NCBI GenBank assembly: GCA_035270865.1
Contig: DATESK010000149.1
Span: forward strand, 1-26,957
Origin: Clostridia bacterium
GTDB lineage: Bacteria; Bacillota; Clostridia; Christensenellales; CAG-917
DNA: 26,957 bases
Direction of reading: 5' to 3'
This document shows, one piece after another, positions 23,486 to 26,957 of this stretch (positions are counted from its first letter, which is position 1; every line of letters begins with the position of its first letter). A program made the translations under genes and the position numbers. The notes under the pieces were generated by a model. The model ran no database searches. It saw only the letters and a program-made list of their open reading frames with translations, and was not told the DNA's origin.

Positions 23486-23631
23486 AACGAAACGGCAGAA
23501 AAGTAATACGAAACATTGTATAGAGATTGTGTTATAAAGATACAAATTGCTAACCTTAGTTGAAAAAAGTAGTTTTATTGTAACGGGTAAAATATAAGTA
23601 GAATATAGAAATTTAATAAAGAGAGAAGAAA

Positions 23632-24279
23632 ATGTTAAAAATTGAAGATTTGAAATTTGACCAAAACGGACTAATTCCCGCCATCGTTCAAGATTTTCGC
23701 ACGAAGGAAGTTTTGACGCTGGCATATATGAACCGAGAGAGTTTGGAAATATCCATAAAAGAGCAAAAGACTTGTTTTTATAGCCGCAGCAGAAAGGAAC
23801 TTTGGCGCAAGGGCGAAACAAGCGGAAACTTCCAACATATCGTTACGATAAAGCCCGATTGCGACCGTGATGCGTTGGTTGTTGAAGTAAAAAAAGACGG
23901 ACCCGCCTGTCACCTTGGAAATGAAAGCTGTTTTTGCGATTATCTTTTTGTGAGTGATGAAATAAAGGAGTTCTCTCTTCAAAATTTATACGAGATGCTT
24001 GAGGGCAGAAAAGCCGAAAAGGTCGAAGGTTCCTACACTAGCTATCTCTTTGAAAAAGGCATAGATAAAATTTTGAAAAAGGTGGGCGAGGAATGCACCG
24101 AAGTCATTATTGCGGGAAAGGGCGGAGAAAACTTGGAGCTTACATTTGAGATTGCGGACTTAACTTATCATCTGCTTGTACTAATGATTGAAAAAGGAAT
24201 ACCTCTGTCAGAGATTTTTGACGAACTATCAAAGCGACATATTGTTGATAGCAAAATTAAGCAAGAGAAAATGAAATAA
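23632..24279 (+). CDS. hisIE: Bifunctional phosphoribosyl-AMP cyclohydrolase / phosphoribosyl-ATP pyrophosphatase
   Basis: [40 protein letters not shown], then [21 protein letters not shown]. Confidence 0.96.
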
Positions 24280-24413
24280 GTTAATTAAAACTGCGTCAAA
24301 CAAATTTGCAAATAAGCATTTGAACTGATTGACATTTAGAATAAAAACATAATGTTGATTAGAATAGCAGTAAAAAAGACTTGAAGATAAATCCAAAATA
24401 TTTAAAATAATGC

Positions 24414-24442
24414 TTGACAACACGAATATGCTATGTTAATTT
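24414..24442 (+). promoter_or_regulatory. Putative sigmaA promoter of the ilv leader
   Basis: TTGACA (24414-24419), 17 bp, TAATTT (24437-24442) with TG at 24434-24435. The -10 is a weak match. Confidence 0.5.
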
Positions 24443-24504
24443 CAAATAAAGGAAACGGATATTTTTCCTTTGCATAACATATAGTAAAAAAGACTGGGAG
24501 CAAA

Positions 24505-24621
24505 ATGTTGAACTTACTGAACTTAGCAAACATCATAATTATTATTAGCGTTATCGTACTAGTACTAGTAGATAGCGTTCATTTGAGTTTGCCAAAAAGG
24601 TGGAGTTTGATACAAAGATAG
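24505..24621 (+). CDS. Ile/Leu/Val-rich attenuator leader peptide (38 aa) MLNLLNLANIIIIISVIVLVLVDSVHLSLPKRWSLIQR
   Basis: GGGAG (24496-24500) then ATG (TTG at 24508 is an alternative start). 16 of the first 22 codons are Leu/Ile/Val, including five consecutive Ile. The stop codon lies 22 nt before the terminator. Absent from the ORF track. Confidence 0.8.
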   Translation: MLNLLNLANIIIIISVIVLVLVDSVHLSLPKRWSLIQR

Positions 24622-24675
24622 TATCACATTCAAAGATTTTTCGAAGACCTATGGCAAACGCTATAGGTCTTTTTT
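24523..24675 (+). promoter_or_regulatory. Ribosome-mediated transcription attenuator of ilvBN
   Basis: Mutually exclusive helices: 1:2 (24523-24535 with 24584-24595), 2:3 antiterminator (24587-24601 with 24647-24659), 3:4 terminator (24644-24671). Confidence 0.75.
24644..24675 (+). terminator. Attenuator terminator in the ilv leader
   Basis: aagacctatggc-aaac-gctataggtctt followed by tttt, ~125 nt upstream of ilvB. Confidence 0.9.
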
Positions 24676-24801
24676 AATAACATCGGACAAAAGAAAGTTG
24701 ATGAAGCATGCGGGCATATAGCGAGTTGTAATGCGAGTATGCAGATAAAATAAAGTAACTAGTTAAAGCTAAAACAAGTGGTTTGCAAAAGGAGAGCAAA
24801 A

Positions 24802-26469
24802 ATGAAAATGTCAGGAGCTAAGATTATAATAGAAACGCTTATTGAGCAGGGAACAGACACGATTTTTGGATATCCCGGCGGTACGGTATTGAATATTTAC
24901 GATGAAATTTATAAGGCAAGCGACCGCATTACTCATTATATTACTTGCCACGAACAGGGAGCTACTCACGCGGCGGACGGTTATGCAAGGGCAACCGGTA
25001 AAACAGGAGTTGTGATTGCAACTTCAGGCCCCGGGGCAACCAACCTTGTTACAGGAATAGCTTCGGCGTATCTTGATTCAACACCGCTACTTGCGATAAC
25101 AGGGAATGTGCCAAACGCATTGATTGGAAAGGACAGTTTCCAGGAAGTGGACATTTTGGGAATCACTATGCCGGTAACAAAGCACAACTTTATTGTAAAA
25201 AATGTGGAAAAACTTGCCGATACAATCCGAGAAGCACTCAAAATTGCAAACAGTGGAAGACCAGGGCCGGTGCTTATTGATGTTCCAAAGGATGTGCAGT
25301 TAGCGGAATGCGAATTTGAAAAGCAGGGAAAGGTTTGCCTTAATAAAAACAATACAAAGTGTTTAGATGATGAAAACCTGAAAAAAGCCTTGAAAATTAT
25401 TAGCGAAAGCAAAAGACCTTTTATTTACGCAGGCGGCGGAGTGGTGATTTCAAGCGCGAGCGAGGAGCTAACCAAATTTGCTGACTGCATTGATGCACCA
25501 ATAGGCACAAGTATGATGGGACTTAGCGGAGTTTCCGCGGACAATCCAAAATTTTTGGGAATGACGGGAATGCACGGCAAGTTTGCGGCAAGCAAGGCAA
25601 TGTCAAAGTGCGATTTGCTTATTGCAATAGGCACGAGATTCAGCGATAGGGCAACAGGGAATAAACGCGAATTTAGTAACGGCAGAAAGGTGTTGCATAT
25701 CGACATTGACCCCGCTGAAATCGGCAAAAATATTCCCGCGTATGTGTCACTTTTGGGCGATGTGAAGTGCGTACTTAACAGCCTTTTAAGAAAACTTCCC
25801 GATAGCGACAGAAAAGAATGGAAAAGTGAGCTTGAAGAAATAAAAAACAGCAAGGATTCCCACCTTGATATGAATCAAGATAAGTTGAATCCGCAAGCGA
25901 TAATCGAGGGCGTACAAAAATACGCCGATGCGGACACCGTTATTGCAACGGATGTCGGACAGCATCAAATGTGGACGGTGCAATACTATAAATTTATGAA
26001 GCCAAGAACTCTTATCACTTCGGGCGGATTGGGAACTATGGGCTTTGGAATGGGGGCAGCGATAGGTGCTGCGATAGGCGCGAAAAAAAGAGCGGTGCTG
26101 TTTACTAGTGATGGCAGTTTTCATATGAATATGAATGAAATGGCAACGGCTGTTTCAAATGAATTGCCGCTTATTGTGATTGTTATGAACAATCATGCGC
26201 TTGGTATGGTAAGACAATGGCAAACGCTGTTTTTTGAATCAAGATATTCAAATACTACACTAAACCGCAAGACTGATTTTGTCGCTCTTGCCAAAGCGTT
26301 TGGAGCAAATGCCAAAAGACTTACCGACCTTTGCGACCTTGACGAAACTTTGAAGTGGGCGTTTGAACAAAAAACGCCAGTACTCATTGATGCGTTTATC
26401 GACTCTGATGAAAAAGTGTTGCCGATGATTCCGCCAAACGGCACAATAAACGATATTATTTTAAGATAA
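24802..26469 (+). CDS. ilvB: Acetolactate synthase large subunit (555 aa)
   Basis: FGYPGG, HEQGATHAADGYAR, TSGPGATN, FQEVD, GRPGPVLIDVPKD, DVGQHQMW, SGGLGTMGFG, DGSF..MN, NN..LGMVRQWQ. Start set at ATG 24802 (AGGAG upstream). Confidence 0.96.
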   Translation: MKMSGAKIIIETLIEQGTDTIFGYPGGTVLNIYDEIYKASDRITHYITCHEQGATHAADGYARATGKTGVVIATSGPGATNLVTGIASAYLDSTPLLAITGNVPNALIGKDSFQEVDILGITMPVTKHNFIVKNVEKLADTIREALKIANSGRPGPVLIDVPKDVQLAECEFEKQGKVCLNKNNTKCLDDENLKKALKIISESKRPFIYAGGGVVISSASEELTKFADCIDAPIGTSMMGLSGVSADNPKFLGMTGMHGKFAASKAMSKCDLLIAIGTRFSDRATGNKREFSNGRKVLHIDIDPAEIGKNIPAYVSLLGDVKCVLNSLLRKLPDSDRKEWKSELEEIKNSKDSHLDMNQDKLNPQAIIEGVQKYADADTVIATDVGQHQMWTVQYYKFMKPRTLITSGGLGTMGFGMGAAIGAAIGAKKRAVLFTSDGSFHMNMNEMATAVSNELPLIVIVMNNHALGMVRQWQTLFFESRYSNTTLNRKTDFVALAKAFGANAKRLTDLCDLDETLKWAFEQKTPVLIDAFIDSDEKVLPMIPPNGTINDIILR

Positions 26470-26561: not shown

Positions 26562-26957
26562 ATGGAAGAAAACATTATTCTATCAATGTTAGTGAAAAAC
26601 GAAGTTGGCGTACTAACGCGCGTGTCGGGCTTGTTTGCAAGAAGGGGCTTTAACATAGGCAGTTTGTCCGTAGGGGAAACAGAAGACAGCAAAATTTCAA
26701 GAATTACCATTGTAACGCAGGGCGACGAATACATTAAAGACCAAATAATAAAGCAGCTAGAAAAACTGCACGATGTCATTATTGTTGATGCCCTAGATGC
26801 CAAAAATATTGTTATGCGTGAACTGGTGCTAATCAAAGTCAATGTTGAATCGGGGAAAAGAAGCGAACTGCTTGAAGCGGCTTCAATTTTCAGAGCAAAG
26901 GTGATAGACCTTACCCCCGCATTTTTGACTTTAGAAATCACAGGCGAGAAAACCAAA
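26562..26957 (+). CDS. ilvN: Acetolactate synthase small (regulatory ACT) subunit, truncated by the window end
   Basis: Hand translation from ATG 26562 (GAGGT upstream): MEENIILSMLVKNEVGVLTRVSGLFARRGFNIGSLSVGETEDSKISRITIV..QIIKQLEKLHDV..RELVLIKV. Open to the end of the window. Confidence 0.95.
   Translation, partial: MEENIILSMLVKNEVGVLTRVSGLFARRGFNIGSLSVGETEDSKISRITIVTQGDEYIKDQIIKQLEKLHDVIIVDALDAKNIVMRELVLIKVNVESGKRSELLEAASIFRAKVIDLTPAFLTLEITGEKTK

Follow-up and report, generated by a model that had tools for sequence, protein, structure and literature searches.

Control of ilvB in Bacillota is usually credited to T-boxes, ppGpp riboswitches and CodY. Both RNA elements are described as regulators of ilvB in members of this phylum (PMC10272879, PMC6123439). 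In E. coli, the acetolactate synthase operons ilvBN and ilvGMEDA are preceded by ivbL and ilvL, upstream open reading frames (uORFs) of roughly 32 aa, 11-15 of which are Ile, Val or Leu (PMC6123439, and textbook accounts). Ribosome-mediated attenuation of Ile/Val/Leu genes is also described for Staphylococcus aureus ilv-leu, Listeria monocytogenes Rli60 and Lactococcus lactis leu/ilv (PMC5794164, PMC6123439). In addition, the ilvB-II motif (Corynebacterium / C. glutamicum ilvBNC), the ilvB-OMG motif and the Leptospira ilvB motif have been interpreted as attenuators (PMC10272879, PMC11857589, PMC8632094).

Here we describe a leader upstream of ilvBN in a Clostridia genome, located near one end of the window, by which we mean the whole 26,957-nt stretch of DNA that was analysed. 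This leader very probably acts as a ribosome-mediated transcription attenuator of the leader-peptide type, in which the level of charged Ile-, Val- and Leu-tRNA governs ilvBN expression. The elements of such a switch are present and able to pair in alternative ways, and relatives conserve them with covariation. The features of the locus are as follows.

23632-24279: hisIE, the gene upstream of the leader region
24414-24442, + strand: putative sigma-A promoter read from the sequence, with -35 TTGACA (24414-24419), a 17-nt spacer, TG (24434-24435) and -10 TAATTT (24437-24442)
24448-24471, + strand: perfect hairpin of 8 bp, AAAGGAAA/UUUCCUUU, where the transcript is predicted to begin, read from the sequence
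24496-24500, + strand: Shine-Dalgarno motif GGGAG of the uORF, read from the sequence; GGAG-like motifs precede the aligned start in most homologous leaders
24505-24621, + strand: leader-peptide uORF, ATG at 24505, 38 codons, peptide MLNLLNLANIIIIISVIVLVLVDSVHLSLPKRWSLIQR, from the sequence and the ORF list
24523-24535, + strand: segment 1, UUAGCAAACAUCA, the 5' strand of the anti-antiterminator; 24526-24535 pairs with 24584-24592 in the minimum free energy (MFE) structure
24547-24579, + strand: inner hairpin within the Val/Ile/Leu codons S15-V25, from the MFE structure and the alignment
24584-24601, + strand: segment 2, the switch strand, coding for L-S-L-P-K-R; pairs with segment 1 or segment 3
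24603-24631, + strand: spacer hairpin containing the uORF stop codon, from the MFE structure; poorly conserved in the alignment
24643-24675, + strand: intrinsic terminator, 13-bp stem 24643-24655/24660-24672, loop AAAC, U6 at 24670-24675, from RNAfold and the alignment
24647-24659, + strand: segment 3 (ACCUAUGGCAAAC), comprising the terminator 5' arm and loop; forms the antiterminator with segment 2
24802-26469, + strand: ilvB, acetolactate synthase large subunit, the gene putatively under control (TIGR00118, 722.7 bits; cut-off 538)
26562-26957, + strand: ilvN/ilvH, acetolactate synthase small subunit, truncated by the contig end (NF008864, 162 bits; TIGR00119, 148 bits)

As read from the sequence, the uORF combines a Shine-Dalgarno motif and a start codon, lies ahead of the amino-acid biosynthesis genes ilvBN, and is enriched in codons for the amino acids that the operon makes. 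Leu occupies codons 2, 4, 5 and 7, five Ile codons follow at 10-14, and V-I-V-L-V-L-V spans codons 16-22. Leu, Ile and Val account for 21 of the 37 non-start codons (55% of the peptide), compared with 24.2% in the long ORFs of the genome (binomial tail 2e-5). The 1.2-Mb assembly contains 3613 ATG-ORFs of 30-50 codons, and no other among them reaches 55% L/I/V.

The region from 24490 to 24680 folds at -51.1 kcal/mol (z = -4.9), and none of 200 dinucleotide shuffles folds as well. Segment 2 (GUUUGCCA-AAA-AGGU, 24587-24601) has ACCU-A-UGGCAAAC at 24647-24659 as its alternative partner, and the resulting antiterminator helix excludes the intrinsic terminator, which lies between the uORF and ilvB and ends, with its U-tract, 126 nt upstream of ilvB. 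This terminator escaped a simple terminator scan but is clear both from RNAfold and from the aligned relatives. The 5' strand of the 1:2 helix can be reached by a ribosome stalled on the control codons at this locus, and the helix has moderate support across the family. These results bear out the structural core of the first-pass annotation, which had proposed a 38-aa uORF with ordered Leu, Ile and Val control codons, the pairing of segment 1 with segment 2, the competing pairing of segment 2 with the terminator 5' arm and loop, and a strong 3:4 terminator with a U-tract. The inner hairpin may, on the modelled structure, also act as an RNA polymerase pause hairpin. The spacer hairpin is probably not essential, given its poor conservation.

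The leader transcript is predicted from the sequence to start near 24449 and to be about 227 nt long. The -10 hexamer TAATTT is weak, matching the consensus at three of six bases, and a consensus promoter scan did not list the site, listing instead a weaker alternative at 24381-24408. An exact TTGACA is nevertheless found 56-129 nt upstream of the uORF start in all 17 seed loci of the covariance model described below, in each case followed by a -10-like hexamer, often with a TG extension. The recurrence of this putative promoter at all 17 loci suggests that the leader is a transcription unit of its own. The perfect hairpin at 24448-24471 may, judging by its position, serve as a 5' stabiliser of the transcript. 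The stretch from the hisIE stop codon to the leader promoter (24280-24413) showed no terminator-like hairpin, either on reading the sequence or in the simple terminator scan, and read-through from the his genes may therefore feed the ilvB leader. In a search of sequencing runs, DNA nearly identical to 24300-25300 was found in manure, wastewater, food-waste and landfill metagenomes, sources that fit an organism of anaerobic digesters or gut; the leader locus was matched by these DNA metagenomes and by no RNA run.

The same arrangement recurs in other genomes. A genome of the same genus (G001) carries the peptide MLSFIAAIVIIISISVIVLLVDSVHYNVAEIG and a terminator ahead of its ilvB. A DNA search in 40 relatives found this same-genus copy alone, and a covariance-model search was needed for the others. 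An L/I/V-rich uORF is present within 450 nt upstream of ilvB in about 55 of the 80 loci encoding the closest ilvB relatives, and a covariance model, R1, was built from 17 of these. R1 finds 44 homologous leaders at E<=1e-4, most of them directly preceding ilvB. Every one of the 44 has an open frame of 29-48 codons from the aligned start, with 30-61% L/I/V, and the helices of the leader covary across the set. The relatives conserve the Ile run and the motif S-[VI]-I-V-L-x-L-V. The run of four N-terminal Leu codons, placed first among the control codons by the first-pass annotation, is indeed present, but it is peculiar to this genome.

We next consider whether the alternative helices are conserved as pairs. 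Over the terminator and inner hairpin together, pairing holds in 95% of cells and covariation is seen at 17 of 18 pairs; both partners have changed in 146 cells compared with 35.5±8 in shuffles. The alignment used was fitted to those two helices and not to the antiterminator helix. Taken singly, the terminator is paired in 97% of cells with both-side changes in nine of ten consensus pairs, and the inner hairpin in 92.7% with such changes in all eight. For the 8-bp antiterminator core, to which the alignment was not fitted, 77% of cells are paired, and shifting the partner by 1-3 columns lowers this to at most 53%. Its 26 double-change cells, themselves a lower bound, compare with 15.6±3.5 in shuffles, and none of 500 shuffles reaches this value. 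The 1:2 helix is the least constrained of these pairings, and its register differs between lineages; on fixed columns 60% of cells are paired, with 14 double-change cells against 6.5±1.9 in shuffles. The leader sequences are related rather than independent, so the shuffle statistics overstate significance.

In the MAFFT alignment A1, segment 2 is mis-registered in four rows; the covariance-model alignment A3 is better, yet L002, L006, L007 and L009 are still shifted. With several rows of A3 still 1-3 columns off, counts by column for 2:3 and 1:2 are to be read as minimum values. An alignment-free scan of 55 loci was noisy, with terminators mis-picked in distant loci, and was repeated on the model-based alignment. 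In this repeat, the best upstream duplex of the terminator 5' arm and loop is segment 2 in 43 of 43 leaders, at p<=0.05 against dinucleotide shuffles in 29 of them. For 37 of the 43 leaders, the best partner of segment 2 within the 5' part of the uORF coincides with the columns of segment 1 (p<=0.05 in 20 of 43).

Changes that run through both strands can be followed in individual leaders, as in these pairs of segment 2 and terminator loop.

L012: segment 2 GAGUUUUACC, terminator loop GGUAAAACUC
L007: segment 2 GUACUGCC, terminator loop GGCAGUAC
L086: segment 2 GCAUUUGC, terminator loop GCAAAUGC
L092: segment 2 GUCGUUUCGC, terminator loop GCGAAGCGAC
L048: segment 2 UGCUUUGCC, terminator loop GGCAAAGCA
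L016: segment 2 GGGUUUUGCCG, terminator loop CGGCGGAACCC

In some cases the change extends to all three segments. Segments 1, 2 and 3 read GCAAAC, GUUUGCC and GGCAAAC at this locus, GGCAGU, ACUGCC and GGCAGUAC in L007, and GGUAC, GUUUUACC and GGUAAAAC in L012. Segment 1 thus changes together with segment 2, from GCAAAC here to UUGGCAGU in L007 and UUGGUACUC in L012. On this comparative sequence evidence, the terminator, the inner hairpin and the antiterminator are maintained by compensatory changes across the 44 leaders, and the alternative helices are under selection.

How the helices might exchange was modelled by constrained folds in which a 34-nt ribosome footprint was held single-stranded. 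With no ribosome, 1:2 forms once segment 2 is made, followed by 3:4. An A-site placed at L5, I12 or V20 leads to 2:3 in the nascent RNA that ends with segment 3, and a ribosome sitting over segment 2 or the stop codon gives 3:4. These folds agree with the earlier proposal that a stalled ribosome would mask segment 1 and free the antiterminator. The terminator (-17.7 kcal/mol) beats the antiterminator at equilibrium, so the switch must be kinetic. A kinetic decision also holds for the classical attenuators (trp, his).

The promoter, ribosome footprints, pausing, kinetic folding order and amino-acid response that we infer would combine as follows. Transcription would begin at the leader's own promoter, near 24449, and the nascent segment 2 would be captured at once by segment 1; in the modelled structure, this pairing would close one long protector stem-loop that includes the inner hairpin. 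If no ribosome stalls, segment 2 would be occupied by segment 1 or by a ribosome on codons 28-33, segments 3 and 4 would pair, and polymerase would stop at the U-tract (24670-24675). A ribosome stalled on Leu 4-7, Ile 10-14 or V-I-V-L-V-L-V 16-22 would instead cover or separate segment 1 and melt the inner hairpin. The freed segment 2 would then pair with segment 3 (GUUUGCCA...AGGU with ACCU.UGGCAAAC) ahead of the synthesis of segment 4, no terminator would form, and polymerase would proceed into ilvB. Starvation for Ile, Val or Leu would lead, by stalling on codons 4-22, to antitermination, and ample supply, or a uORF left untranslated, would let the terminator form.

One step of the first-pass annotation has to be revised. 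It had a ribosome that reaches the stop codon cover segment 2, but a ribosome paused there (24619-24621) would have a footprint of about 24601-24634, which misses the segment 2 core at 24587-24594. Because the stop codon is located 18 nt past segment 2, between segments 2 and 3, segment 2 is expected to be occluded while codons 28-33 are read, and not by a ribosome resting at the stop. Once the ribosome has passed codons 28-33, segment 2 would be recaptured by segment 1.

An extension of this mechanism, which we consider improbable, would give the peptide itself a part. The conserved and strongly hydrophobic nascent chain with its C-terminal (V/A)-L-P would slow or tether the ribosome, and a homologous peptide-plus-RNA module common to Bacillota, Lentisphaerota and Kiritimatiellota would travel with ilvB as a mobile regulated cassette, put to further use ahead of an ilvA-like gene and of a transporter. 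The slowing could come about by membrane or SRP capture, or by a Pro-dependent pause. If true, peptide-driven slowing would be a second input to the switch.

Three further readings, each highly improbable in our estimate, concern the attenuator itself. The first accepts the uORF as a sensor of Ile, Val and Leu but places its main action in translation, mRNA stability or Rho and not in the intrinsic terminator. It draws on the poor U-tract after the terminator hairpin in three relatives (L012, L014 and L019) and on the 126-nt spacer before ilvB, which is roomy enough for Rho. A canonical stem followed by 5-9 U is, however, found here and in most relatives, and the ilvB ribosome-binding site lies outside all conserved helices; there is thus little to recommend this reading over transcription attenuation.

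The patterns of conservation in the peptide bear on a second reading, in which a small hydrophobic membrane peptide is the product of the uORF, itself a separate gene complete with terminator, and ilvB is transcribed independently and without attenuation. The peptide is indeed very hydrophobic, about one membrane span long, and partly conserved at the amino-acid level. But the conserved residues other than L/I/V (S..D-S-V and V-L-P-K) are those that RNA pairing imposes: the codons for D-S-V are the complement of those for S-V-I within the inner hairpin, and V-L-P-K, encoded by GUU UUG CCA AAA, is segment 2. The third base of the Pro codon also co-varies with the terminator, the element precedes ilvB or an ilvA-like gene in many lineages, and a pairing that competes with the terminator would be purposeless in a stand-alone gene. 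All of this leaves the membrane peptide with scant likelihood.

The third reading, that the leader is a riboswitch or protein-binding RNA for a metabolite or factor (ppGpp, uncharged tRNA) and its open frame incidental, has precedent in the T-boxes and ppGpp riboswitches of other Bacillota cited above and in the T-boxes elsewhere in this genome, but we hold it very doubtful against the lack of any Rfam family match at E<=10, the persistence of the frame, with its start codon and its abundance of L/I/V, in every one of the 44 leaders although their nucleotides have changed a great deal, and the lack of a conserved unpaired block of the aptamer type. The Rfam 15 scan of 23500-25500 covered the T-box (RF00230) together with known leaders and riboswitches (Leu, His, Thr and Trp leaders, ykkC/ppGpp and others), and found none of these at E<=10; the best Rfam match is Yfr10 with E = 1, confined to the terminator hairpin. 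Relatives whose ilvB is without the leader show no Rfam element at gathering score either.

The same T-box model finds two T-box leaders elsewhere in the genome (G000:C15:1630-1873 and G000:C36:3-150, both on the minus strand, 112 and 74 bits). Together with the ilvB leader, these indicate that tRNA-sensing and ribosome-sensing attenuators are both in use in this organism. A search for CodY (TIGR02787) found it neither in this genome, which is 88% complete, nor in 18 others of its family, of which most reach at least 95% completeness, and the leader may for this reason be the main sensor of Ile, Val and Leu for ilvBN. Three copies of CodY are present in one genome of another family in the order. 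A 10-of-15 match to the CodY box, picked out by eye upstream of the -35, is not meaningful in AT-rich DNA of a genome in which CodY was not found.

The leader family is sporadic in Clostridia, where it is found in Christensenellales-like MAGs. In samples of other genomes, R1 has matches in 10 of 150 for the same order and in 4 of 149 for the class; the genome studied here has one copy. Outside Clostridia, matches are found in Lentisphaerota, including the cultured Oligosphaera ethanolica DSM 24202 (L016, with its leader at 1283-1458), and in a Kiritimatiellia MAG. The earlier view of the element as an unannotated attenuator in Clostridia is thus upheld as to annotation by the lack of an Rfam match, but is too narrow as to host. 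The ilvB genes of Lentisphaerota/Kiritimatiellota that carry the same leader family are at loci L015, L016, L021, L022, L027, L029, L032, L034, L039 and L048, with organism names taken from record titles.

In a quick ilvB tree with a provisional root, all model-positive loci fall in one 57-row clade with support 100. The Lentisphaerota/Kiritimatiellota ilvB are placed as sister to the Christensenellales-like group of this locus, among Bacillota rows. This placement suggests that ilvB and its leader moved together between phyla, and hence that a leader and its enzyme gene are able to do so.

We further note variations in the setting of the leader. Members of the family precede a PALP enzyme of ilvA type (L090:1501-1669), an MFS transporter (L094:1501-1675) and an HTH-cupin-AMP-binding protein (L087:1501-1663, minus strand). 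L008, from an Oscillospiraceae MAG, has tandem leaders at 1032-1228 and 1237-1433 before one ilvB (E = 3.7e-5 and 1.9e-14), each copy with an L/I/V-rich uORF and a terminator. Ahead of ilvB, the same ilvB clade has two more types of L/I/V-rich uORF that are without an R1 match at E<=1e-3: a Spirochaetota type ending HDDFAANTGG and a Clostridia type MRR..NNLLL.NLLGVRIII..SRFCCIQ (loci L030, L036, L040, L041, L046 and L049; and L031, L033, L035, L037, L044 and L052).

Taken together, the locus appears to hold a real attenuator of the textbook kind that belongs to a new leader family, with a function that we infer from sequence. A sensor of this sort appears to be undescribed for this bacterial group: a Clostridia ilvB leader peptide is undescribed in the papers found by our literature search, the comparison being made outside the study of Lopatovskaya et al. 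2010 (Mol Biol 44:128), reportedly a survey of attenuators across phyla. The mechanism is a textbook one, and the gain is in breadth rather than principle. Leader-peptide attenuation of Ile/Val/Leu synthesis would be extended to Clostridia, in Christensenellales-like gut and digester bacteria, and O. ethanolica DSM 24202 offers a cultured carrier of the family. The family is absent from Rfam, and R1, with its 44 members, provides a usable covariance model with which small ORFs and premature terminators of metagenome-assembled genomes would be better annotated.

Among described systems, the ilvB-II, ilvB-OMG and Leptospira ilvB motifs share with this leader a conserved Ile/Val/Leu-rich uORF followed by a terminator before ilvB. 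They differ in being GC-rich or Leptospira-specific; none matched the locus in the Rfam scan, and, compared by eye, it bears no resemblance to excerpts of their published alignments. The leaders of S. aureus, Listeria and Lactococcus likewise provide ribosome-mediated Ile/Val/Leu attenuation in Gram-positive bacteria. Those hosts are Bacilli in which the leaders act with CodY, whereas CodY was not found in this genome's family, and no homology to these leaders was detected in the Rfam scan. The S. aureus peptide is Leu-rich, while the peptide described here is Ile/Val-dominated.

The closest parallel is with E. coli ilvBN (ivbL) and ilvGMEDA (ilvL), which also place a short uORF, alternative 1:2, 2:3 and 3:4 hairpins and a terminator before acetolactate synthase genes. 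Both follow one logic, and the response to more than one amino acid would also be shared, although the Rfam scan found no similarity in sequence or by covariance model. The leader described here is further set apart from ivbL and ilvL by a uORF that traverses segment 2 and has its stop codon between this segment and segment 3, by a conserved inner hairpin placed inside the control codons, and by its host, a low-GC member of the Clostridia.
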